Assembly (NCBI GenBank): GCA_963848135.1
Contig: CAWKCK010000003.1
Span: 806,001-870,000, forward strand
Origin: an uncultured delta proteobacterium
GTDB taxonomy: Bacteria > Desulfobacterota > Desulfobacteria > Desulfobacterales > SG8-13
Length of the DNA stretch: 64,000 bases
Direction of reading: 5' to 3'
The position numbers and the translations under genes are program-made. How positions within the stretch are numbered: position 1 is the first letter of the stretch; the number at the start of each line of letters is the position of its first letter. Positions 49,961 through 64,000 of this stretch are shown here, in pieces. The notes below the pieces were generated by a model, which worked only from the letters and a program-made list of their open reading frames with translations, did no database searches and had not been told where the DNA came from.

Positions 49961-51268
49961 TTATGACATTGTGCCCGATTCACAGGTCCGGAAGTACGGT
50001 GCCAGGGTGCGGCGGATACGCCACCGGATCAGGGAAGGGGCCGTGGGTTCGATTTCCCCGGTGTCAACAGCCGGATAGAGATCCGGGAAATACTGGCTGA
50101 GGAGCATGCGGGGCATGGGCCGGTTCAAGTTTTCCAGCAAGCGGTCAACGGATTCGACGACTTCAGGGCAACGCCAATAATAGCGTACCCGGTCGCAGTA
50201 GCTGTATTGGCGCATGAAGTCGACTTCGGCCGCACTCCCCCGGTAATGCGTTTGCCAGTGTTGTGGGTTGGCTTGCATGGCAGATGACAGCGTGTCTCGG
50301 ATCCCCGATAGTCGATATCCTCTTTTTTTATCCAGCCATTCAGTTTCGATATGCGACAAGGCGAAGACGGCTTCGCGGTAAGCATAAGTCAGGCAGGGGC
50401 CAACTTTGAGTATGGTGAAGTGGTCCCGAACCATCCGCGCTATCGTATCCGGAGATTGATAATCCGTCGCGTGAGCCTCGTAGGTCATAATGCCGGGCAG
50501 CGTGGCATGATAAGCGGACAGTTCGGTGGCTTTCTCCGGTCGGTACCTGGCAATCTTTGTGTTGCCGAAATCCACACCGGGTTGAACCACGACGGCGGCC
50601 ACCCGATCCCAGGCTGCCATCAGTCTGTTCCGATGGAAGCACTCCCCGGTTGCTTCAATTATCCGGGCAACATCTTCCGCCGGGGTCACCGCCATCCTAT
50701 CGGTATCTTCGAGACCACCACCCGGCAGTGGAACTTCCGCACCGATGACGTAAAGGGGCAATGGACGGCCGGCGGGGTTTCTTTGAGCTTCCGTTTCAGC
50801 CGCGCGGCACAGTGCCGCCGATCGCTCGGCAACCAATTCAACCGGCAGAGTCGCTTCCGGGTCATCGGCGCATCCCATCCCGGCATCCAGATGGATCTTG
50901 TTGAACCCAGCTTTGACGCATGCCTTCACCAGGGCTGTTGCTCTTCGCATGGCTTGGGCGGCAGGCATCCTTTTCCAGGGATGGGGGCCCAGATGATCGG
51001 CACCGATGATCAACCGCTTTAGGGGAAATCCCGCCGTCGCTGCCAAGGACCGCATATAGAATGCAAAATCAGAAGGTTGCATGCCGGTGTAGCCACCAAA
51101 CTGGTTGACCTGGTTGGATGTGGCCTCCGCCAGTAGGACGGCGCCTCGCGACCTTGCTTCTTCAAAAGCGGCCTCCAATACGGTGCGATGGGTTGAACAA
51201 ACGGCCGTGATTCCGCCAATTTCTCCCTTCAGGTGCCGGGAACGCAGATTTATCAGGTGGTCGTTCAC
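49961..51268 (-). CDS. gatZ: GatZ/KbaZ family protein (tagatose-6-phosphate epimerase / aldolase accessory)
   Basis: VCSTH, EATSNQVNQFGGYTGM, GADHLGP, KIHLD, VVQPGVDF, EAHATDYQ, LKVGP, DRVRYYW. Confidence 0.88.
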   Translation of the reverse strand: MNDHLINLRSRHLKGEIGGITAVCSTHRTVLEAAFEEARSRGAVLLAEATSNQVNQFGGYTGMQPSDFAFYMRSLAATAGFPLKRLIIGADHLGPHPWKRMPAAQAMRRATALVKACVKAGFNKIHLDAGMGCADDPEATLPVELVAERSAALCRAAETEAQRNPAGRPLPLYVIGAEVPLPGGGLEDTDRMAVTPAEDVARIIEATGECFHRNRLMAAWDRVAAVVVQPGVDFGNTKIARYRPEKATELSAYHATLPGIMTYEAHATDYQSPDTIARMVRDHFTILKVGPCLTYAYREAVFALSHIETEWLDKKRGYRLSGIRDTLSSAMQANPQHWQTHYRGSAAEVDFMRQYSYCDRVRYYWRCPEVVESVDRLLENLNRPMPRMLLSQYFPDLYPAVDTGEIEPTAPSLIRWRIRRTLAPYFRTCESGTMS

Positions 51269-51524
51269 AGTGGGAAACTTTCACTTCAATAGGTGTTTTT
51301 GTTCGTTATATTCCTGAATATTCTTCAGTTCGGCATATGACCCAGTTTGGTAATCATGAACAGCGATAATTTTTACTGTTTAACATAAGCCATCTCCAGT
51401 CAGAGGGGAAGGGGTACCAGCGGGCTCTCCGGTGGCTTTAGCCTTCGGATTGACCGATTGACGGTCGTCCTGCCGAACAGCGATGAACCCCGCTTGTTTC
51501 GGTGTCACGCCTGGAACGGTATCC

Positions 51525-53162
51525 TCATTGTATTGCCGATGACCGTGAGTGGCGATCTTCCTGATAAATCATTACACCCATGACAACCATCTGCAGCGCT
51601 GAAAGCCCCACAAAATACCAGATCCAGATTGGCATTCCGCCGAAAAAGGGGCCGGTTTTACCCCAGGACCAGAAATCGATGGATAGGATAAAAATCATAC
51701 CCAGCAGGTAGGTGTATGGCGAACGAAGCCAGGCGGGAGTATGCATTTCGAAGGTTCCTTCCCGGCATGCCAGGTAAAGGTGGGTCAACAGGTAGACCGT
51801 GAACGTTGTCAGCATGACCCATACCACCGGCAGAAAACCACCCGTTGGTATCCATTTCATGTAGAAGGCGACAAGCGCAGTCTCCCCGCAGAGGATGGAC
51901 AGTATCGCCGGCTGAACATACCGGCGCCTGAAATAAAGGCCGAAAATTACCGTGGGGAAAAGAACTGCCAGGCCCGTAAAGGTCTGCGTGGCTATCTGCA
52001 GGATGGTGGCCGGAGGACGATAGGCCAGGGCCAGACCCGCCAGGCTCAGAAAGATGACGAACAGCCTGCCGGTGACAGTGCCTTCCGAAGCTTTGCGGCG
52101 CAAAAGCGGCAAGATATCACGCGTAAATATCGAGCTGAGGGTCAGCAGTTGCGAATCCATGGTGGACATTAATGCCGCCATTCCGGCTGCGATGACCAGC
52201 GTGGCCATGACATCGCCCGATAAGTGTGTCATCAGCAGGGGAAGAATGCGGTCGGCGTCCTTGCCGACAAGATCCGGGATCGACAAGCGGCCGATCACCC
52301 CGATGGCTATCGGCATGATAAAGACGACCGTGCAGACCAACGGATAGAGGAGCATGATGCGGCTGATGGTTCGCTGGCTGCGAGCGGTGAAGAAGCGCTG
52401 GAACAGCTGCGGAAACATTGGATCGCAGAAAAACCAGAGCAACATAAAACTGAGCCAGATACCGGGTAAATATTTACCCGTACCCCCCGGGCGGGAAAAA
52501 AGTTCCGGTGATAGGGATAGAATTTTCTGGTTGGCAGCTGATAAACCACCGTGGTTTTGAACAACGACAATAAGGGATGCCAGCAGCATAACAAACATCA
52601 CAGAGCCCTGGAACAGGTCGGTCCAGGCCACCGCCCGCATTCCGCCCCTCAAGGTATACAGGACAATGATCACCGTTACGAGGATGCAGCCGAAAAAATA
52701 TGGCAGTCCCAGCAGCGCCTCGAGGGCATATCCGGCAGCCATGGGCTGCAGGGCCAGGTAAGGTATGGTAAAGATGATCATGACCATCGCGAAGACGAAG
52801 GAGAGTGCGCGGTTGCCATACAGATAGCGGATCAGTTCCGGTGGGGTGACAACTCCGTGGCTGCGGCCGATTTCCCAGATCTTACGTCCGAGGATCCAGA
52901 ATGTTATCGCCATAAAACCGGTGCCGAATCCCATTATGGGAAAAAATGCATACCCGTCGCGGTAGCCGGCTCCTGATGCGCCGAAGACCGTGAAAGCCGA
53001 AAAATTGGTCGCGACCATCGTTCCCAGCAACACCAGAGTCCCCAGCTTCCGGTCTGCCAGAAAATAATTTTCAGGGGTCGATTTCCAGCGGGTGCGTGTG
53101 GCAATACCGATCAGCAGAACGACGATGAAATAGGCACTGAAAACAATTATTTTTAACAACAT
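51525..53162 (-). CDS. Sodium:solute symporter (PanF/PutP-like) with extra C-terminal 2-TM module
   Basis: YFLADRKLG, ATNFSAFT, GGMRAVAWTDLFQG, AALMSTMDSQLL; GGAGG RBS. Confidence 0.9.
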   Translation of the reverse strand: MLLKIIVFSAYFIVVLLIGIATRTRWKSTPENYFLADRKLGTLVLLGTMVATNFSAFTVFGASGAGYRDGYAFFPIMGFGTGFMAITFWILGRKIWEIGRSHGVVTPPELIRYLYGNRALSFVFAMVMIIFTIPYLALQPMAAGYALEALLGLPYFFGCILVTVIIVLYTLRGGMRAVAWTDLFQGSVMFVMLLASLIVVVQNHGGLSAANQKILSLSPELFSRPGGTGKYLPGIWLSFMLLWFFCDPMFPQLFQRFFTARSQRTISRIMLLYPLVCTVVFIMPIAIGVIGRLSIPDLVGKDADRILPLLMTHLSGDVMATLVIAAGMAALMSTMDSQLLTLSSIFTRDILPLLRRKASEGTVTGRLFVIFLSLAGLALAYRPPATILQIATQTFTGLAVLFPTVIFGLYFRRRYVQPAILSILCGETALVAFYMKWIPTGGFLPVVWVMLTTFTVYLLTHLYLACREGTFEMHTPAWLRSPYTYLLGMIFILSIDFWSWGKTGPFFGGMPIWIWYFVGLSALQMVVMGVMIYQEDRHSRSSAIQ

Positions 53163-53173
53163 ACAGTCACCTC

Positions 53174-53210
53174 CAAATAATAAAGCCATCCCCTTGGGTC
53201 GGGATGGCTT
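53174..53210 (-). terminator. Intrinsic terminator inside the symporter 5' leader (attenuator)
   Basis: 10-bp perfect stem AAGCCATCCC / GGGATGGCTT followed on the minus strand by TATTATTT, then GGAGG and the start codon. Confidence 0.75.
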
Positions 53211-53240: not shown

Positions 53241-53363
53241 TTTCCGATCGCTTGTATCTAAAATCACCCGAACGGTCAAGACCTTGACGGCTAAAATTTA
53301 TCATTGCAAAAAACAGTCAGAACTTATATCCGTTGGTAACACTGTCCCATTCGGAGTATGCAT

Positions 53364-53771
53364 ATGCAACCACAAGCCGCAGCCGGATTATCCCCCTGGG
53401 AGCCCGGCGTCTTCAGCCTGATCATCTATTTTCTCCTCATATTGGTGGTGATTGGTGTTATGCTGTTGCTCTCTTCTTGGCTTGGAGAGAAAAAACCGAA
53501 TCCGGAGAAGTTGCGGGCCTATGAAAGCGGGATCATACCCACCGGCTCTGCCCGGCTCAAATATCCGGTGCCTTTCTTTCTCGTGGCCATCTTCTTTCTT
53601 ATATTTGACGTCGAAGGGGCCTTTATATTTGCCTGGGCCGTTGCCTGGGAAGACTTGGGCTGGACGGGCTGGCTGCAGATATCGTTTTTTATCATCGTTC
53701 TCCTTTTGGGACTTGTTTACATTTGGCGGAAGAAAGGGCTGGAGTGGGGTCCGAAAGCGAAAAACGGATAA
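53364..53771 (+). CDS. nuoA: NADH:quinone oxidoreductase subunit A
   Basis: [26 protein letters not shown]. Confidence 0.93.
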
Positions 53772-56134
53772 ACAACCGTCTGATAAATACCACCGATTAC
53801 CTGATCAACTGGTCACGCCAATATAGTCTCTGGCCCATGTTCTTCGGGCTTTCGTGTTGTTTTGTCGAAGAAGCGACGGTGTTTACCGCCCGCTACGATC
53901 TGGCCCGCTTCGGTGCCGAAGTCCTGCGACCCTCCCCGCGTCAAGCGGATTTATTGATTACCTCCGGTACGATATTTAAAAAAGTTGCCCCCGTCGTTTT
54001 GCGGCTTTACGAACAAATGGCCGAGCCCAAGTGGGTCATATCGATGGGGTCCTGTTCCAACTGCGGTGGGATGTATGATGGTTACAGCGTGGTGCAAGGG
54101 ATCGATCAAATTCTGCCGGTAGATTTATATATCCCCGGCTGTCCGCCACGGCCGGAGGCTGTGGAACAGGGGCTCGTCCTTTTACAGCAGAAAATCATGG
54201 CCGAAGAACGTCCGACACGTGCCATCTTCCGCCTAACCGGGGGTGTGCAGGGGACGATGGCACCGATTCTGGTAGATGGGGAGACCAAGTCCCGCGATCC
54301 CCGGGGGCCGGGGATGTCCGCAACGGCCATCCGCGGGACATCCGTTGTTCCTCCGGGATTCCACGGCTCTCGATCCGATCTGATGTGGACGCCGCCACCG
54401 CGGCGAATCGAACTCGGGTCCTCCGAAACGAATCTTGCCGCTGAACTTCAGGGCACATTCGGCGATGCGGTCCGGCAGGAACCGGAGACGGCGGACATGC
54501 TGTCGCTGCGGGTGGATCGAAAACACATCAAAGATGTGTTGTATCATCTGAAAACCGCTGCGAAAGTCCGCTACCAGCGCCTTGAGGATTTGACGGCTGT
54601 TGACGAATCCGCGCGTCGCGACCGCCCCATGCAGAATGATTACACCCTGGTATACCATCTTCTGTCTTTCGATGGACCGAGCCGGCTGCGCCTGAAAGTC
54701 CCGCTGCTGGCTTCAGATCCGCTCATCGACAGTATTACCGACATATGGCCCTCGGCCAACTGGTACGAACGTGAGGTTTTCGACATGTTCGGGGTGCGGT
54801 TTACCGGCCACCCGAATCTGAAACGGTTGCTCATGCCCGAGAACTGGACGGGGCATCCGCTGCGAAAGAGCCACCCCGGCCGGGCCACCGAATTGCCACC
54901 GTATACCCTTGAAGACGCCCGCAAACTTCAGCCGTTGGATGGCGGCGAATACTTCAAAGAGGACAGCACGGCCCAACACCTCATCCTGAACATCGGACCC
55001 CATCATGTCAGCACCCATGGGTTGCTACGCTACATCGTTGCCCTGGACGGGGAAGAAATCACCGGTCTGGACATGGACATCGGCTACCATCACCGTTCGG
55101 TGGAAAAAATCGGCGAGCGCCAGACATGGCACCAGTTCATACCCTACACCGATCGCGTCGATTACCTGGCCGGCGCCGCCAATAATCTGCCTTATGTCAT
55201 GGCGGTGGAGACTCTGGCCGGGATCGAGGTGCCCACGCGGGCGCAATACATCCGGGTGTTGCTGTGTGAGCTGTTCCGGTTGAGTAACCACCTGGTCTGG
55301 TTTGCGACGTATGCCCACGATGTCGGCGCTATGACGCCCAATTTTTATACTTTTCGTGAACGGGAGATGATCCTTGATATCGTAGAGCTCATCACCGGCG
55401 GCAGGCTGCACCCGTCCTGGTTACGCTTGGGTGGCGTGGCCGCCGATCTGCCGGAAGGCTGGCAGGAAGCCGTAGCGGCTTTTGTGCGGGTTTTTCCCCA
55501 ACGACTTCAGGAATACGAAGCGCTGATCCGCAAGAACCCGATTTTTAAGGCACGGACGTTAGGAATCGGGCGGATTTCACTGGAAGAGGCCATCGACTGG
55601 GGGGTCAGCGGCCCCAATCTGAGAGCCTGCGGTCTCGAATGGGATTTGCGCAAAAAATTTCCCTATTCCAGTTACCAGGATTTCGACTTTGAGGTGCCTA
55701 CCGCCACTGACGGCGATTGCTATGCCCGTTACCTGGTGCGGGTCGAGGAAATGCGCCAGAGTCTGAAGATAATCGAGCAGGTTATCCAGAGGATACCGGG
55801 CGGGCGCACCATCACCGACGATTACCGCTATGTGATCCCGAAGCGTGCAGACATGCTCACCGACATAGAGAGTCTCATCCACCATTTTATAAACGTCACC
55901 CGCGGACCCAAGATCCCGCAAGGAGAGGCGTATGCCTCCTGCGAGATCCCACGCGGGGAGCAGGGTTACTATGTGGTTAGCGATGGAATCGGCTACCCCT
56001 ACCGTTTGCGCATCCGGTCGCCCGGTTTTGCCAATGTGCAGGTGATGCCCTTGTTGAGTGTCGGCGAGACCATTGCCGATCTGATCACAATAATCGGTTC
56101 GGTAGACTATATTCTGCCGGACATCGACCGGTGA
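53744..56134 (+). CDS. nuoBCD: Fused NADH:quinone oxidoreductase subunits B-C-D
   Basis: Nuo[28 protein letters not shown]; Nuo[18 protein letters not shown]; NuoD: GPHH..THG, GYHHR, DRVDY, PDIDR; one uninterrupted frame. Start (GTG) uncertain. Confidence 0.92.
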
Positions 56135-56241
56135 GGTTAAGCCGTGAAGAAAATTATCTCAATGAGGTTTTTTAGCACCTGTTAACCAGAAGCGATTTTT
56201 AATACGTATAGCGGTATTTGAACACAAACTCGATCGGGCCC

Positions 56242-56715
56242 ATGTCGACAATAGAACTTCTAAAAGAACTCGAACAACAGATCGGTGCAGCGGATCATCC
56301 GCGGGAGCTGGCGGTGGACGTGATGTTCGCACTGCAGGAGCAATACGGCTACCTAAGCGATGTCGCACTGGAAGAAGCGGCCGGACTACTGGGGATGTCA
56401 CCGCTGGAGGTTGAGGAACTGGCCACGTTTTACACGTTTATCTACCGCCGGCCAGTCGGAAAATATGTCATTCATCTTTGCGACAGCCTCATCTGCTGGA
56501 TGGACGGGTACATCCCCATCCGCGACTATCTGACCCGTAAATTGGGCATTGAGATGGGCGAAACCACCGCCGACGGTTTATTTACGCTTTTGCCGGTTTG
56601 CTGTATCGGATACTGCGACCGATCCCCGGCCATGTTGATCAATAAAAAGGTTTACGGGCCGCTGACCACAGAGAAGATTGATACCATTCTGGCAGAATTG
56701 AAATCAAACGATTGA
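56242..56715 (+). CDS. nuoE: NADH:quinone oxidoreductase subunit E
   Basis: ATFY, CDSLIC, CIGYC 2Fe-2S ligands. Confidence 0.92.
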   Translation: MSTIELLKELEQQIGAADHPRELAVDVMFALQEQYGYLSDVALEEAAGLLGMSPLEVEELATFYTFIYRRPVGKYVIHLCDSLICWMDGYIPIRDYLTRKLGIEMGETTADGLFTLLPVCCIGYCDRSPAMLINKKVYGPLTTEKIDTILAELKSND

Positions 56716-56820
56716 ATCACTGCCGAGGTTCAAGCGGCAGGGCGGGTACATACACGTAGGTAAGAACAGTAAGTTAACGATTTGCCATCGTCGATGGTGA
56801 ACGCAGACAACCGACTCAAT

Positions 56821-58095
56821 ATGGCGACAGACTATCCCCAGATCTTATTTCAGAATCGTAAACCGGATCGGATTGCCACCATCGACGAATACCGTCGCAG
56901 CGGCGGCTATCAGGCGCTGACGGACATTATGCAGCAGCGGTCCCATGCGGCGGTCAAAAAGCAGATCCTCGATGCGGTGCTGCTGGGCCGCGGTGGTGCA
57001 GCTTTTCCGGCCGGAATGAAGATGGAGACCATTAATGACGCGGCACCGTTTCCACGCTATATGATCTGCAATGCGGATGAAATGGAACCGGGAACCTTCA
57101 AAGACCGGGTATTGATTCATACCGATCCGCACATGCTCATCGAGGGGATGATAATTGCCGCCTACGGGGTATTGGCGGAAAAAGGAATCATATTTATCCG
57201 TCCTGAATATGAAAGTGCAGCCAGAATCCTGGAAAGGGAGATTGAAGTTGCCGAAAAAGCCGGCTTTTTAGGTGCGAACATACTCGGCAGTGACTTTTCC
57301 ATGGAAATTATCGTCCATCGCAGCGGCGGACGATACATTTGCGGCGAGGTGACAGCCCAGCTGAACGCATTGATGGGCAAACGACCGAATCCCAAACAGC
57401 CACCGCCTTACCCCACAGAGAAAGGGCTGTGGGACCAGCCGACCCTGCTCAATAACGTTGAGACACTGGCCTGTGTGCCGCATATTATACGCCATGGACC
57501 GGAGTGGTTCAAGAATCTGGGGCTGACCGAATCCGCCGCCGGGACAAAGATCTTTTGTGTCAGTGGCCGCATCAACCGGCCGGGCTGTTATGAACTTCCT
57601 CTCGGCGTGCGTCTGAGCGAAATCGTCGAAGTTCATGCCGGCGGCATTCGGAACGGGGCTGAATTCAAGGCCTGCCTGCCAGGTGGGGCGTCCACCCGAT
57701 TCATGCCGAAACAGTTCTACGACATTGAAATGGATTTTGAAACCCTTAAGGCAGAAGGCCACCGGCTGGGAACCGGGGCTGTCATGATTTTCGATCATAC
57801 CAACTGCATGGTGGCGGCGACGCTGAACCTGATTGAATTTTTTGCCCGGGAGTCCTGCGGCTGGTGTACGCCCTGCCGGGAGGGATTGCCCTACATCAGG
57901 GACCTGTTGCAGAGGATAGAGACCGGCCAAGGGGAGGAAGAATTTATCCCCATGCTGGAACGCATGAGTCAGCATTTATGGAACGCCTACTGTGCGTTTG
58001 CTCCCGGTGCTGCGGCGCCCCTGGAGAGTCTTTTAACCTATTTCAAAGACGAAGTAAGGGAACACATCGTAAGGAAAAAATGTCCGTTTCAATAA
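56821..58095 (+). CDS. nuoF: NADH:quinone oxidoreductase subunit F (FMN), altered nucleotide pocket
   Basis: GRGGAAF, NADEMEPGTFKDR, YICGEVT, NNVET, ESCGWCTPCREG, CAF. Confidence 0.93.
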   Translation: MATDYPQILFQNRKPDRIATIDEYRRSGGYQALTDIMQQRSHAAVKKQILDAVLLGRGGAAFPAGMKMETINDAAPFPRYMICNADEMEPGTFKDRVLIHTDPHMLIEGMIIAAYGVLAEKGIIFIRPEYESAARILEREIEVAEKAGFLGANILGSDFSMEIIVHRSGGRYICGEVTAQLNALMGKRPNPKQPPPYPTEKGLWDQPTLLNNVETLACVPHIIRHGPEWFKNLGLTESAAGTKIFCVSGRINRPGCYELPLGVRLSEIVEVHAGGIRNGAEFKACLPGGASTRFMPKQFYDIEMDFETLKAEGHRLGTGAVMIFDHTNCMVAATLNLIEFFARESCGWCTPCREGLPYIRDLLQRIETGQGEEEFIPMLERMSQHLWNAYCAFAPGAAAPLESLLTYFKDEVREHIVRKKCPFQ

Positions 58096-58173: not shown

Positions 58174-60672
58174 ATGCCTAAACTGATCATCGACAACCAG
58201 GAACTTGAGGTGCCAACCGGAACGAAGGTCATCGATGCCGCAGAAAAGATCGGTATCATGATTCCGCGGTTTTGTTACCATCCAGCGCTTGGATCGGTGG
58301 GTGCCTGCCGTGTTTGCGCCGTCAAATTTTTGCAGGGGCCGATCAAAGGCGTGCAGATGAGCTGCATGATCGATGCCGCCGACGACATGGTGGTTTCGAC
58401 GACCGATGAAGAGGCCGTCGATTTCCGCCGTCACGTCATCGAGTGGCTGATGCTGCATCATCCCCACGACTGCCCGGTTTGCGATGAGGGCGGGCATTGC
58501 CTGCTTCAGGACATGACAGTGTCTGGCGGCCACGGGATCCGGCGCTATCCCGGGAAAAAGCGCACCCATCACGATCAGTATCTCGGCCCCCTGGTTCAGC
58601 ATGAAATGAACCGCTGCATCCAGTGCTACCGTTGTTCCCGTTACTACCAGGAATTCTGCGGATACCAGGACTTGGGTGTCATGGGGATTGGTCATCGCGT
58701 TTACTTCGGCCGTAAAAATGACGGAACCCTGGAAAGCCCGTTTGCCGGCAACCTTACCGATATCTGCCCGACAGGTGTATATACCGATAAGCCCTCGCGA
58801 TTTTTCGGGCGGCGGTGGGATTACGAACGCAGCCCGTCCCTTTGTCTGAATTGCTCCCTAGGCTGTCACACGGTTGTCAGTGCCCGCTATCGGACAATCG
58901 TGCGTCAGGAGGCCCGCCACAGCCCGGCCGTCAACGGATATTTTATCTGTGACAGGGGGCGTTACGGATTTTCCTATGCATCTTTGCCCGATCGGCCCCG
59001 ACGTGCGGCCATCGAAGGAAAGCCAGTTTCGGTCCAGGAGGCCTTGAACCAGGCCGTCAAGCGGATATCCGATATTTCCATGCATTCGGGTGCGAGTGCC
59101 GTTGCATGCGCCGGTTCTTCCCGCAGCAACCTGGAAACCTTGGCGGCACTGGACCGCCTCAGCCGGAAGATGGGCTGGCAAACACCGGTTTTCTGGATGG
59201 AGAAATCTATTGCAGATCGTGTGAAATCGGCCGCTACTGGCCTTGAGACCGATTCGGCCGTCTCCTTGCAGGCGGTTTCGCAGGCCGATATGATTTTGGT
59301 CGTGGGTACCGATCCGATCAATGAGGCGCCCATGCTGGCTCTGGCCCTGCGTCAGGCGCAAAGGCGGGGGGCCCGGGTGGTGGTTCTCGATCCCCGACCG
59401 GTGTCACTGCCGTTCGAATTTCAGCACCTACCGCTGAACCTCGAAGAGATTGACCTGTGTCTGGGAGTGTTGATCAAAAAGACCGTCGAACATGGTGCCG
59501 CCGAAAAAAGGGGTCCGGAAGCCCTTGCGTTTTTGGATGCGATTCAGGAGACACCGCTCTGGGGTATTGATCAGATCGATGCCATCGCCGCAGACTTGAA
59601 GAGCAGTCGGCGGCCCCTCATTGTCTGCGGCACCGATACCGTGACAAATTTCACGCCGGTCCTGGCTGCCGATGCGATCTTGCTGCTGCAGTCGGATAGC
59701 AGAAAGGCCGGTCTTTTTTATGTGCTGCCGGGGCCCAATGCCTTTGGGGCAGCCCTGATAGACCGCAGCGCAGGAGCCTTTGACACGGTGGTCAGTGGAA
59801 TCGAGAAGGGCAACATCAAGGCGCTGGTCTTGGTCGAGTGTGATCCTGTGCGCAATTTTTCAGACCGGGGGCGTCTCGAGCGTGCGCTGGCATCCCTCGA
59901 TCTTCTGGTCGTTCTCGACTATCTGGATAACGGTTCCGTGCAGCAGGCCCATATATTTTTGCCCACGACCACACTTTATGAATCGGGCGGGCTTTTCATC
60001 AACCAGGAGGGCCGGATGCAGGCGGTACCGTCAGCCTACTGCGGTGGTTATCCCATCGCAGAGACCGGTGGGGGCGATCATCCGCCGCGCGACTACGGGG
60101 CCGGTCTGCCGGGCGCCGATCCCGCCGAGGCCGGACAGCTGTTAGCTGCCATTGCGCGTTTCGAAGAACCGGACGGAGAAGAAACGATCACTCGCTCAAC
60201 CCTGCAAACCTGGTTGGCCGAAACCCTGTCGTTAGGGGAAGAATTCATGCCGAACATGACGCTACCTGATGACGGAATTCGGTTGGAAGCGGCCGTCGGC
60301 ACGGCCAGGCGATTTTCCCTTGACTGGTCAGCGGTGGTGGGCCGAAGCCGATCGGGTGAAAAATTCCTGCAACTTCTGACGGTCGAAAGAACCTTCGGCA
60401 CAGAAGAATTGTCATCCTGCTCGCCGCACCTGGAGACCCTCACGTCTGATGCCCGTCTGCTCGTACACAAAGTGGACGCCGAGCACTTGGGCCTCGAAGA
60501 CGGCGATATGGTAGCGGTGACAACCGAATGCGGTTCCGTAAAAGTAAGAGCGCGTATTGAAGAGAACATGCGCGTCGGCGTGCTGGTCCTGCCGCGTCTC
60601 AAGGGAATTGATTGGCAGCAGCTGGGGACGGCACCTGTATATATCGCGCCCGAACAGATTCGAAAAATCTGA
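58174..60672 (+). CDS. nuoG: NADH:quinone oxidoreductase subunit G
   Basis: IPRFCYH, GACRVC, HPHDCPVCDEGGHC, RCIQCYRC, CLNCSLGC (N7). Confidence 0.94.
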   Translation: MPKLIIDNQELEVPTGTKVIDAAEKIGIMIPRFCYHPALGSVGACRVCAVKFLQGPIKGVQMSCMIDAADDMVVSTTDEEAVDFRRHVIEWLMLHHPHDCPVCDEGGHCLLQDMTVSGGHGIRRYPGKKRTHHDQYLGPLVQHEMNRCIQCYRCSRYYQEFCGYQDLGVMGIGHRVYFGRKNDGTLESPFAGNLTDICPTGVYTDKPSRFFGRRWDYERSPSLCLNCSLGCHTVVSARYRTIVRQEARHSPAVNGYFICDRGRYGFSYASLPDRPRRAAIEGKPVSVQEALNQAVKRISDISMHSGASAVACAGSSRSNLETLAALDRLSRKMGWQTPVFWMEKSIADRVKSAATGLETDSAVSLQAVSQADMILVVGTDPINEAPMLALALRQAQRRGARVVVLDPRPVSLPFEFQHLPLNLEEIDLCLGVLIKKTVEHGAAEKRGPEALAFLDAIQETPLWGIDQIDAIAADLKSSRRPLIVCGTDTVTNFTPVLAADAILLLQSDSRKAGLFYVLPGPNAFGAALIDRSAGAFDTVVSGIEKGNIKALVLVECDPVRNFSDRGRLERALASLDLLVVLDYLDNGSVQQAHIFLPTTTLYESGGLFINQEGRMQAVPSAYCGGYPIAETGGGDHPPRDYGAGLPGADPAEAGQLLAAIARFEEPDGEETITRSTLQTWLAETLSLGEEFMPNMTLPDDGIRLEAAVGTARRFSLDWSAVVGRSRSGEKFLQLLTVERTFGTEELSSCSPHLETLTSDARLLVHKVDAEHLGLEDGDMVAVTTECGSVKVRARIEENMRVGVLVLPRLKGIDWQQLGTAPVYIAPEQIRKI

Positions 60673-60755: not shown

Positions 60756-61757
60756 ATGCTGACAGATACTATGACAACCTGGATAGCCGGTTTTATTGTT
60801 CTGATGATCAAGCTGGTCGTGGTGCTTGTTGTTCTGCTTCTCGTGGCCGCGTATCTGGTATGGGTGGAACGCAAGTTTCTGGCCAGACTGCAGATCCGTT
60901 ACGGTCCCAACCGGGCCGGAAAATTCGGGTTGCTCCAACCCATTGCCGACGCCGTCAAGCTGATCGCAAAGGAGGACACGATACCGGCCGGGGCCGATCG
61001 GGTCATATTTTTACTGGCGCCAGCCGTGGTGGCTGGTACAGCGCTCCTCATGTTCGGTGTGGTTCCATTCGGTGGAGACCTGACGCTCTGGGGACAGAAA
61101 ATCCCCCTGGTGATTTCGGACCTCAACGTGGGGCTGTTGTTCGTTTTCGCCCTATCGTCTTTAGGCGTCTACGGAGTGGCCCTGGGCGGCTGGGCCTCGA
61201 ATTCCAAATTTAGCCTGCTGGGCGGCATCCGCGGTGCGGCCCAAATGATCAGCTACGAGTTGGCCATTGGGCTCTCACTTGTTCCGGTTGTTATGCATGC
61301 CCGATCCCTGAGCCTTGTGGACATCGTCAATGCCCAGGCCGGTTATCCTTTTATATTGTTACAGCCGGTTTCTTTCGCTATTTTTTTCATCGCCGCCATG
61401 GCAGAAAGCAAGCGTATTCCGTTCGACCTGCCCGAAGCGGAAAACGAGCTAGGCGCAGGATACCACATGGAATACAGCGGTATGCGATTCGGGCTCTTCT
61501 TTTTAGGGGAATATGTCCACATGCAGGTTCTGGGCGCCCTGGTGGCGGTTTTTTTTCTGGGAGGCTGGCGTGGTCCCCTGTTACCGCCATGGATCTGGCT
61601 GCTCGCCAAGATTATCATTGTGTCTTTGATCATGATCTGGATCCGGGGGACCCTGCCGCGGTTGCGCTACGATCAGCTGATGGCCATCGGGTGGAAGATT
61701 TTGATCCCAGCAGCGTTGTTGAACATAATGATCACCGGGGCATTGATTTTGCTGTGA
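60756..61757 (+). CDS. nuoH: NADH:quinone oxidoreductase subunit H
   Basis: ERK...Q.RYGPN, GLLQPIADAVK, AQMISYE, PFDLPEAE, PRLRYDQL. Confidence 0.95.
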   Translation: MLTDTMTTWIAGFIVLMIKLVVVLVVLLLVAAYLVWVERKFLARLQIRYGPNRAGKFGLLQPIADAVKLIAKEDTIPAGADRVIFLLAPAVVAGTALLMFGVVPFGGDLTLWGQKIPLVISDLNVGLLFVFALSSLGVYGVALGGWASNSKFSLLGGIRGAAQMISYELAIGLSLVPVVMHARSLSLVDIVNAQAGYPFILLQPVSFAIFFIAAMAESKRIPFDLPEAENELGAGYHMEYSGMRFGLFFLGEYVHMQVLGALVAVFFLGGWRGPLLPPWIWLLAKIIIVSLIMIWIRGTLPRLRYDQLMAIGWKILIPAALLNIMITGALILL

Positions 61758-61853: not shown

Positions 61854-62390
61854 ATGGCATCCGTATGGGAGGCAATAGCTGCGTTGGCAGCCGGTTTTGC
61901 GACCACGTTCAAGCACCTGTTTCGCAAACCGATTACCGAGTCGTACCCGGAATTCAAACGCGCCTTGCCGGCGCGCAGCAGAGCCCGGATCGTTCTCACT
62001 CGGGATCCGGACGGGGCTGAACGTTGTGTGGCCTGCTATCTTTGTTCGGCAGTCTGCCCGGTCAGTTGCATTTCCATGCAGTCGGCCGAAAAAGAGGATG
62101 GCCGCCGCTTCGCCACCTGGTTCCGGATCAACTTTGCGCGCTGTATTTATTGCGGCCTGTGCGAAGAAGCCTGTCCGACATCGGCTATCCAGCTGACGCC
62201 GGATTTCGAAAACTGCCGACGCGATATTTTGACCCTGGTCTTCGAGAAAGAAGACCTTCTGGTTGATTCCTGCGGGAAGGACACCGAATACAATTTTTAT
62301 AAATACGCTGGAATTACCACAGCTCTCGGCGGAAAAGGAACCCATGCAAAGGAAGAACTGCCAGTGGATGTGAAAAGCAATATGCCCTAA
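61854..62390 (+). CDS. nuoI: NADH:quinone oxidoreductase subunit I
   Basis: CVACYLCSAVCP and CIYCGLCEEACP. Confidence 0.95.
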   Translation: MASVWEAIAALAAGFATTFKHLFRKPITESYPEFKRALPARSRARIVLTRDPDGAERCVACYLCSAVCPVSCISMQSAEKEDGRRFATWFRINFARCIYCGLCEEACPTSAIQLTPDFENCRRDILTLVFEKEDLLVDSCGKDTEYNFYKYAGITTALGGKGTHAKEELPVDVKSNMP

Positions 62391-62450: not shown

Positions 62451-62978
62451 ATGACTCTCAGCGCAATTCTATTTTACATCTTATCGGCTATTATACTTGC
62501 GGCAACCGTGCTGGCGGTGACGCGACGCAATCTGGTGCATGCCGTGGTGTATCTGGTCATTTCCTTCTTCGGCAGTGCGCTGCTATTTTATCTCTTCGGA
62601 GCCCCGATGCTGGCGGCCCTGGAGGTCATCATCTACGCCGGGGCCATTATGGTGTTGTTTCTTTTTATCATCATGATGCTCAGGGAGGGACAGTTTAAGG
62701 AAGAGATGTTTCCGCTCGGTCAGTGGCTGCCGGCAGCGGCGATGGCGACGGTTTATATTTTCGTCGGGGCCGTTCTGGTTTACACCGACCCCACCGGCCG
62801 GGAGGTCTTGGTCAGTGCCGTGGCGACGCCGCAAGCGTTCGGTCGCTATGTTTTTGAGAATCACTGGCTGGCAATTGAACTGGTTTCCCTTTTGCTGCTG
62901 ATCGCTCTGGTTGGTGCCTTATATCTGGGCAAATCGTCACCGCACCGTCAACCCCCTGAAAGCAGGAAAGAAACATGA
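62451..62978 (+). CDS. nuoJ: NADH:quinone oxidoreductase subunit J
   Basis: NLVHAV, IYAGAIMVLFLF, IELVSLLLLIALVGA. Confidence 0.93.
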   Translation: MTLSAILFYILSAIILAATVLAVTRRNLVHAVVYLVISFFGSALLFYLFGAPMLAALEVIIYAGAIMVLFLFIIMMLREGQFKEEMFPLGQWLPAAAMATVYIFVGAVLVYTDPTGREVLVSAVATPQAFGRYVFENHWLAIELVSLLLLIALVGALYLGKSSPHRQPPESRKET

Positions 62979-63277
62979 TCGTACCCTTCGGACACGTTCT
63001 TTTCCTGGCCGGCATTCTTTTTATGGTCGGAATGGTATGTGCGGTGGCCCGCAGAAATCTGGTCATGATCTTGCTGGGCGTCGAGATAATGCTCAACGCG
63101 GCCACCATCGCTTTTATCGGCGCCTCTTTACGCTGGCAGGAAATGGAAGGTCAGGTATTTGTCCTCTTCATATTTGCCGTGGCTGCCGCGGAAGTGTCGG
63201 TCGGACTGGCACTCATCATTAGTGCTTACAGGCGGACAGGCTCCATTGATCCAAACAATTACAACCTGCTGAAGTGA
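62975..63277 (+). CDS. nuoK: NADH:quinone oxidoreductase subunit K
   Basis: RRNL...VEIMLNA, GQVF, AAAEVSVGLAL. Confidence 0.94.
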   Translation: MIVPFGHVLFLAGILFMVGMVCAVARRNLVMILLGVEIMLNAATIAFIGASLRWQEMEGQVFVLFIFAVAAAEVSVGLALIISAYRRTGSIDPNNYNLLK

Positions 63278-63284
63278 ATTATAT

Positions 63285-64000
63285 ATGATCGATTCCGGAT
63301 TCGTGCTTCCAACCCTGGCATTGGTAATCTTGGTGACCGCGTTGCCCGCCGCCGCGTTCGCAGCCATCATCGTTTTCCTGCGGCCGTATCCGCGTTGGGC
63401 GGCCGGGGCATCGATCACTGCCATATCGGTTTCCCTGGTAAGCGCTCTCTGGCTGATGTTCAGGCATTGGCACATCGAGGTCCCGATCCAGTATACCGTG
63501 CGCTGGGTCGTGTCCGGAGATCTTTATATTCCATTCGGCTTTCTGCTCGATCCCGTCAGTCTGCTCATGCTGATGGTGGTTGTGGCCATCTGTTTTCTCG
63601 TTCAGGTCTACTCGATCGGTTACATGGCCGGTGATCCGGGATTTTCACGCTACTATGCCTTCATGTCTCTGTTTGCCTGGGCAATGACGTCTTTGACGGT
63701 TTCTCCGACTCTCATTCAACTCTACATATTCTGGGAACTTGTGGGGCTGGCCTCCTATCTGCTGATCGGATTCTGGTATGAAAAATTCAGCGCCAGCGAG
63801 GCGGGGAAAAAAGCCTTCGTTATGACCCGTTTCGGAGATGTGGCTTTTTTCCTCGGTGTGCTGCTGATTCTGCTTCATTTCGGAAACCTCAATATTATGG
63901 ATCTGAACGGGCCTGGTGTTGTCGAGCAAATGGCGCCCGGTATTCTTACCCTTTCGGTTTTGCTGGTATTCGGCGGTATTATCGGCAAAAGCGCTCAGTT
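63285..64000 (+). CDS. nuoL: NADH:quinone oxidoreductase subunit L (5' part; runs off window end)
   Basis: Hand translation from ATG 63285: ...LDPVSLLM...VQVYSIGYMAGDPGFSRYY...FWELVGLASYLLIGFWY...KKAF..TRFGD...GKSAQ. Confidence 0.92.
   Translation, partial: MIDSGFVLPTLALVILVTALPAAAFAAIIVFLRPYPRWAAGASITAISVSLVSALWLMFRHWHIEVPIQYTVRWVVSGDLYIPFGFLLDPVSLLMLMVVVAICFLVQVYSIGYMAGDPGFSRYYAFMSLFAWAMTSLTVSPTLIQLYIFWELVGLASYLLIGFWYEKFSASEAGKKAFVMTRFGDVAFFLGVLLILLHFGNLNIMDLNGPGVVEQMAPGILTLSVLLVFGGIIGKSAQ

Follow-up and report, generated by a model that had tools for sequence, protein, structure and literature searches.

In the complex I operon carried by a 64,000-nucleotide stretch of DNA from an uncultured delta proteobacterium (hereafter the window), the nuoF gene encodes a protein in which, as judged from aligned sequences, the FMN/nicotinamide half of the substrate pocket is canonical and the adenosine-ribose/pyrophosphate half is rebuilt, with a Glu giving way to Val and a nearby Lys to Pro. 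Reasoning from these residues and by analogy with engineered and natural members of the family, we tentatively propose, with slightly less than even confidence, that the nucleotide site is relaxed towards NAD(P)H, its specificity being relaxed or dual rather than strict for NADPH. Complex I is generally regarded as an NADH enzyme, and a natural, widespread and conserved lineage without the gatekeeper Glu would change models of electron flow and ATP yield for sulfate reducers and syntrophs, in which catabolism gives rise to NADPH. The features on which the argument draws are collected in the table.

Table. Genes of the nuo operon and pocket or cluster residues of NuoF in the window, numbered from its first nucleotide
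Feature	Coordinates	Strand	Evidence or remark
nuoA	53358..53771	+	profile matches
fused nuoBCD	53723..56134	+	NF009808, 1405 bits against a cut-off of 1156; mark of the 12-gene 'NUO12' complex I
nuoE, 2Fe-2S thioredoxin-like subunit	56218..56715	+	NF005722, 191.6 bits against a cut-off of 141
nuoF (P0001), FMN-/nucleotide-binding 51-kDa complex I subunit	56821..58095	+	424 aa; Pfam domains, NCBIfam, fold
GMKMETI: Lys67 kept (E. coli K72, FdsB K157); Met68 replaces Trp73	57013..57033	+	alignment
Val177 (E. coli E183, second Glu of CGEETAL), changed	57349..57351 (GTG)	+	Val in 121/121 close homologues
Met185 (E. coli Glu191), changed	57373..57375	+	Glu in 95% of the other members (n = 138)
NPKQPPPYP loop: Lys192 (E. 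coli R198), Pro194 (K200), Tyr197 (F203)	57388..57414	+	alignment
N3 [4Fe-4S] ligands Cys346, Cys349, Cys352, Cys391	57856..57993	+	invariant columns, 37-sequence alignment
nuoG	58174..60672	+	TIGR01973, 512 bits against a cut-off of 470
nuoH	60756..61757	+	profile matches
nuoI	61854..62390	+	profile matches
nuoJ	62451..62978	+	profile matches
nuoK	62975..63277	+	profile matches
ORF running off the window	63285..64000	+	place after nuoK suggests nuoL

The frame of nuoF is uninterrupted over its 424 codons and contains the motifs YICGEVTAQ, GMKMETI and NPKQPPPYP, which an initial annotation of the DNA had singled out and which are seen both in the translation and in the HMMER alignment. The ATG at 56821 is its likely start, over a TTG at 56782, because homologues are mostly 424 residues long. 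The three Pfam domains of the protein, namely Complex1_51K (135 bits), SLBB (34.5 bits) and NADH_4Fe-4S (86.8 bits), all exceed their gathering scores, and Pfam finds no domain beyond these three. It falls below the cut-offs of all three NCBIfam equivalog models for NuoF (TIGR01959, 491.9 vs 558.65; NF008436, 442.5 vs 749; NF010120, 363.9 vs 389). By HMMER, its best PDB relative is E. coli NuoF (7p64_F and others; 410 bits, 46% identity), and its structural model (mean pLDDT 92.1) superposes on the NuoF subunits of E. coli, Mycobacterium and Thermus with TM-scores of 0.92-0.96 and rmsd values of 1.5-1.7 Å, the lowest model confidence falling in the two rebuilt pocket loops (pLDDT 66 for residues 171-180 and 62 for residues 191-200). 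In an alignment of 37 sequences, Arg57 of the FMN-binding GRGG loop is invariant, Gly56, Gly58 and Gly59 occur in at least 90% of the rows, and Asn84, Glu87 and Glu89 of the NADEME motif, along with Lys67, are conserved columns; the FMN motifs and the cysteines of cluster N3 are intact, as had been claimed at the outset.

E. coli positions follow the numbering of the K-12 record and were assigned through the HMMER alignment to the solved E. coli NuoF, in which GMKMETI, GEVTAQ and NPKQPPPYP of the query pair with GLKWSLM, GEETAL and NPRSKPPFP, respectively. Glu183 of the E. coli subunit (Glu185 in Thermus and Aquifex) forms hydrogen bonds to the 2'- and 3'-hydroxyls of the adenosine ribose, repels a 2'-phosphate and is the known gatekeeper against NADPH, wild-type E. 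coli complex I having a kcat/Km for NADPH at least 100-fold lower than for NADH; the K-12 numbering bears out that it is this second Glu which is replaced in the query. The other differences pointed out in the initial annotation are of unequal weight. At the Phe and Lys positions it held to be altered, K200P is indeed unusual, but Tyr at 203 is a normal variant, found in 41 of 127 canonical sequences; likewise, when GMKMETI is set against the pattern G.KWSF, W73M is unusual, but the last residue of the pattern is Leu in E. coli itself. The unusual changes in the query are E183V, K200P, R198K, E191M and W73M. Both residues that bound the rebuilt stretch, a Glu and an Arg with a spacing of six residues, are thus replaced. 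Phe62, the counterpart of E. coli F67, is kept and, together with Tyr197, supplies both adenine-stacking aromatics. A review describes the adenine as stacking between Phe70/71 and Phe/Tyr205, the residue in Aquifex being Tyr205, and the adenosine ribose as held by Glu185 and Lys76 (PMC11677225).

The altered residues recur in relatives of the protein. In a close set of 121 sequences, comprising the query and its 120 best matches (72-91% identical), Val occupies the 183 position throughout, within YICGEVTAQ in 113 cases, YICGEVTAL in seven and YICGEVTSL in one; Pro at the K200 position and Tyr at the 203 position are each present in 120 of the 121. The check on orthologues suggested in the initial annotation thus finds GEVT fixed and the substitutions shared well beyond this one assembly. 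Position 71, a Met in the query, is Arg or Lys in most relatives of the same set. An assembly error or a pseudogene as the source of the altered gene was considered and rejected, given the open frame and the conserved residues.

Genome records yielded 35 related loci, of which 21 come from Desulfobacterota and 11 from gammaproteobacteria, three being set aside. The 21 complex I loci (L006-L026), all from metagenome-assembled genomes of Desulfobacterota, have Val (10), Gly (8) or Ala (3) at 183, and all 11 gammaproteobacterial loci retain GEET together with [KR]PPFP. One of the former (L022) was left out of the residue-by-residue comparison because a wrong ORF had been picked; its motif is GEVT/QQPPPYP. 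The Glu-less loci encode NuoBCD as one open frame and have nuoF flanked by nuoE and nuoG; the gammaproteobacterial ones have separate NuoB and NuoCD. Two of the loci set aside encode Bfu-like proteins of 627-631 residues (L027, L028), and in the third (L039) the nuo genes are broken and NuoF was missed by the motif search; the matches of this metagenome-assembled genome to NuoBCD, NuoE and NuoG are split across frames, reflecting either a decayed nuo cluster or assembly frameshifts. In a wider sampling of the family, 131 of 150 representatives drawn from a library of 1.8 billion proteins match the motif pattern, as GEET (103), GEES (14), GEST (6), GEAT (2), GEEL (2), and GEAS, GEDS, GEDT and GEVT (one each).

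A FastTree phylogeny of 161 sequences was computed from the query, the locus proteins, E. coli NuoF, four paralogues from the same genome and, from the 150 library representatives, the ones that match the motif pattern with enough flanking sequence. In this tree the Glu-less NuoFs group as a single clade (support 1.0), whose sister group is the E. coli/gammaproteobacterial NuoFs (support 0.996), all of which have GEET and [KR]PPFP. Set against the 138 other members, the changes specific to the clade include E183 to Val, Gly or Ala (Glu in 92% of the others), E191 to Met or Gln, and R198 to Lys, Val, Ile or Met (Arg in 88%). The pocket changes extend across the clade and are under constraint. 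Residues at position 203 were compared within and outside the clade. Among the 127 sequences outside it that have the Glu, this position is Phe in 83, Tyr in 41, Leu in two and Ser in one, whereas all 11 non-Glu sequences outside it (nine with Ser, two with Asp) have Arg or His there, a pairing to be read as a pattern and not as a statistical test because the sequences are related. Inside the clade (23 sequences), the position is Tyr in 17, Arg in four and His in two.

NuoFs without the Glu recur in the phylum at large. A sample of 400 other genomes, searched at a threshold of E <= 1e-130, gave matches in 42, of which 30 lack the Glu (Val, Gly, Ala or Thr in its place) and 12 have the canonical residue. 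The former comprise 28 loci (L043-L070; Val 7, Gly 9, Ala 11, Thr 1), L082 (Gly) and L084 (Ala), and at position 203 the 28 have Tyr (11), Phe (1), Arg (7) or His (9). At least three sub-types can accordingly be recognized by motif within the Glu-less clade: that of the query, with Val, Gly or Ala and PPPYP; an Arg type, with GEGT and PPR[ST]; and a His type. Complex I NuoFs with GEGT and PPR[ST] are found at L014-L017, L051 (as PVRS), L055, L057, L058, L060 and L062, and the first four of these are flanked by NuoBCD, NuoE and NuoG. Among the 12 Glu-keepers, four (L075, L076, L078 and L079) retain GEET/KPPFP and have YILGEET, with Leu replacing the Cys of YICGE.

The functional meaning of such changes can be gauged from engineered and natural relatives. 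E. coli NuoF variants at E183 reportedly accept NADP, Morina et al. 2011 being said to have called an NADPH:ubiquinone activity "so far not found in nature". A further comparison is with the NuoF homologue FdsB of R. capsulatus, for which Kumar and Leimkuhler (PMC10671435) report zero NADP+ activity in the wild type and a gain of that activity in E259G, E259Q, E259R and E259K, the first having the best catalytic efficiency, with no gain in E259D. K276A and L279R also gain NADP+ activity; K157 is essential, K157R and K157S being dead; and the changes at E259 and K276 are not additive when combined, one double variant not being expressed. NAD+ activity is retained by all active variants, and those at E259 still use NAD+ with a KM up to 62-fold higher. 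FdsB E259 is equated with the complex I Glu by its authors, and we match K276 and L279 to E. coli K200 and F203 by spacing alone, which is equal in the two proteins (+17 and +20 from E259 and E183); this spacing recurs in a KPPLP relative. The query has thus undergone natural, joint changes at two of the three positions that enable NADP use in FdsB, while keeping the essential Lys. It resembles FdsB E259G and K276A and the E. coli E183 variants in having the same two positions altered, the new residues being small or without charge, and differs from the engineered enzymes in that its changes are natural, combined and fixed in a clade, and that Val and Pro are not among the residues tried in them.

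The natural precedent lies in the HydABC enzymes, of which that of Thermoanaerobacter kivui (structure 8A6T) uses NADP+ and that of A. woodii (7Q4V) NAD+, the NADP+ of the former being held by a Gly-rich loop, Phe205 and Arg340 of HydB according to the available sections of the report (PMC10021017). In the printed alignments, the GEST...PRVRPPRT of T. kivui HydB (8a6t_B) sets Ser320 against E183 and Arg340 against F203; the corresponding motif of A. woodii HydB (7q4v_B) and of the B subunit of the A. mobile NiFe-hydrogenase (7t2r_B) is GEET...RPPFP. The query is like T. kivui HydB in belonging to the NuoF family and in having lost the second Glu (Ser320 there, Val177 here). Unlike it, the query has Tyr at 203 and Pro at 200, where HydB has Arg340 and a retained Arg, and it is without the extra N- or C-terminal Bfu-type Fe-S domains of that soluble, electron-bifurcating enzyme. 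Some sister sub-branches of complex I (e.g., L014-L017, L055 and L057) do have the HydB-like Arg at 203 that the query lacks, and the Arg-type NuoFs of Desulfobacterota, with the Glu lost and Arg at 203, converge on the NADP+ signature of T. kivui; these enzymes are predicted to favour NADPH more than those of the Tyr type do.

The query is expected to bind a dinucleotide, given that neither the nicotinamide/FMN side nor the adenine stack is disturbed. Admission of NADPH to the site is favoured because both the Glu and the Lys are gone and their replacements are conserved, in line with the FdsB mutants and T. kivui HydB, and relaxed use is expected over strict NADPH use because no Arg or His is at hand for the 2'-phosphate and Val is not among the FdsB substitutions. 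The genome, which offers no alternative complex I and no PntB, also speaks for an NAD(P)H site. Against it stand the Tyr at 203, where all 11 non-Glu sequences outside the clade have Arg or His; the nature of Val, bulkier and more hydrophobic than the Gly tried in FdsB (PMC10671435); and the lack of additivity between the E259 and K276 changes in the available account of that enzyme (PMC10671435). Furthermore, a positive charge disappears along with Lys200, model confidence is lowest in the pocket loops, and databases and the literature, in the portions available, name these enzymes NADH dehydrogenases. The suggestion in the initial annotation of a different donor therefore fares unevenly: the changes do sit at positions that decide between NAD and NADP in FdsB and T. 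kivui HydB, but the query has neither Arg nor His at 203.

A serious competitor, to which we give an appreciable though minority probability, is that the enzyme is still specific for NADH and that losing the Glu and the Lys does no more than reduce or adjust its affinity for NADH/NAD+, for instance to ease product release or reverse flow driven by the proton-motive force in an anaerobe, with other features, among them the hydrophobic Val and a rigid PPP turn, keeping NADPH out. The retained adenine stack (Tyr197 and Phe62) and Lys67 would fit this account, as would the absence of the Arg or His seen in the non-Glu sequences outside the clade and the continued use of NAD+, at a raised KM, by the FdsB E259 variants. 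The eight GltD/NfnB-like genes of the genome could, moreover, handle NADPH by other routes. However, with Glu in 92% of the 138 other members, anaerobes included, it would be unusual to lose it and keep the same specificity; all the uncharged and positive replacements tried in FdsB gave NADP+ activity, as far as the accessible text of that study goes (PMC10671435); and sister sub-branches share the non-Glu and Arg pair with the NADP+-dependent T. kivui HydB.

That the enzyme is instead a strictly NADPH-preferring, energy-converting NADPH:menaquinone oxidoreductase of natural origin strikes us as unlikely. Such an enzyme would be in keeping with a joint change at two of the three positions where FdsB can gain NADP use, and with the invariance of Val, and near-invariance of Pro, across 121 sequences; for a related sulfate reducer, moreover, oxidation of acetyl-CoA through the Wood-Ljungdahl pathway has been proposed as a source of NADPH (PMC5109826). 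The query, however, shows no new conserved basic residue to receive the 2'-phosphate, having Tyr at 203 and Met at position 71 where most relatives have Arg or Lys, and NAD+ activity persisted in all the active FdsB variants. Very improbable, and rejected here, is the further idea that no dinucleotide is bound and that electrons come either from a protein such as ETF or ferredoxin, as the initial annotation had suggested, or from some other cofactor: only the rebuilt adenosine-side loops with their lower model scores would point that way, against a conserved FMN loop, NADEME motif, Lys67 and pair of adenine-stacking aromatics, an intact nicotinamide pocket, a protein of three domains with nothing added, and no donor gene within or adjoining the nuo operon.

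Under the relaxed NAD(P)H site that we favour, NuoF would still take a pyridine dinucleotide and pass its hydride to FMN, from which electrons would travel through N3 and the clusters of NuoG, NuoI and NuoB to menaquinone, with proton pumping. A site that no longer excludes NADPH would make the enzyme an NAD(P)H:menaquinone oxidoreductase, and its reverse operation on the proton-motive force would reduce NAD(P)+. It is conceivable, though we doubt it more than we believe it, that the whole Desulfobacterota lineage of complex I consists of natural proton-pumping NAD(P)H:menaquinone oxidoreductases, or of NADP+ reductases run in reverse by the proton-motive force; its sub-branches would then differ in how they meet the 2'-phosphate, some with a non-Glu residue and Arg, some with His, and others, like the query, with Val, Pro and Tyr. 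If true, this would provide a direct, energy-conserving link between the NADPH and quinone pools in sulfate reducers and syntrophs, and the Glu-less lineage would supply natural templates for NADPH-driven proton pumps. It would also mean that a different range of substrates may go unnoticed behind the automatic label "NADH-quinone oxidoreductase subunit F".

In its general organization, the enzyme is like E. coli NuoF and the clade E complex I (7p64, 7awt, 9q8i), with the same domains, FMN site, N3 cluster and a fused C and D; it is unlike the E. coli complex in the five unusual pocket changes and in that NuoB, too, is part of the fusion. Features of the NUO12/clade E enzymes are thus found here in the fused NuoBCD and in the grouping of NuoF with the E. 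coli type. The same operon type with a fused NuoBCD occurs in the 12-subunit 'NUO12' complex I of Geobacter, in the available parts of its descriptions (PMC2825233, PMC4758237), a likeness at the level of the operon. It also occurs in Desulfococcus multivorans DSM 2059, for which the accessible portion of the report records a complete nuoA-N cluster with the NuoBCD fusion, a low abundance of Nuo and a function "still to be resolved" (PMC5109826). A protein of identical type is on record for cultured Desulfococcus: that of locus L045, which has GEVT/PPPYP and is 73% identical to the query, matches exactly an entry named "complex I 51 kDa subunit family protein [Desulfococcus]", and this entry is probably the D. 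multivorans enzyme of that report. The portions available of five papers call the operon type NADH dehydrogenase with no mention of the altered pocket (PMC4453560, PMC4758237, PMC2825233, PMC7894505, PMC5109826), and searches of the main texts of openly accessible papers turned up no description of a complex I NuoF that has lost this Glu.

The operon of the window runs nuoA, nuoBCD, nuoE, nuoF, nuoG, nuoH, nuoI, nuoJ and nuoK, with nuoF between nuoE and nuoG. As listed, with a TTG start at 53723, the nuoBCD frame overlaps the end of nuoA by 49 bases (53723-53771), and its true start may lie further downstream because the family match begins at residue 12. Directly upstream of the operon, at 49961-53189 on the reverse strand, are genes for a GatZ/KbaZ-like tagatose-bisphosphate aldolase subunit and a sodium:solute symporter, with no evident link to nuo; the genes upstream as a whole (these two, an M48 peptidase, a methyltransferase and others) give no clue to the electron donor. 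The genome as a whole has five NuoF-family genes, that of the window included, and one true NuoH, a second NuoH-like match of 113 bits being hydrogenase-like; with a single true NuoH, the operon in the window is therefore the only complex I. DsrA is present above its cut-off, which makes the organism a sulfite or sulfate reducer, and a search of the genome, 98.65% complete, found no PntB transhydrogenase. The NuoF-family genes L001 and L004 of the same genome have GEET/RPPFP. Two further loci outside the window, L003 and L005, encode Bfu/HydB-like proteins of 646 and 648 residues that read GEST...KY[IV]RS, with Ser at the Glu position and Arg at 203, a pair as in the NADP+-dependent HydB of T. 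kivui; judging by these motifs, bifurcating modules of the NAD type and of the NADP type may be present side by side in the genome.
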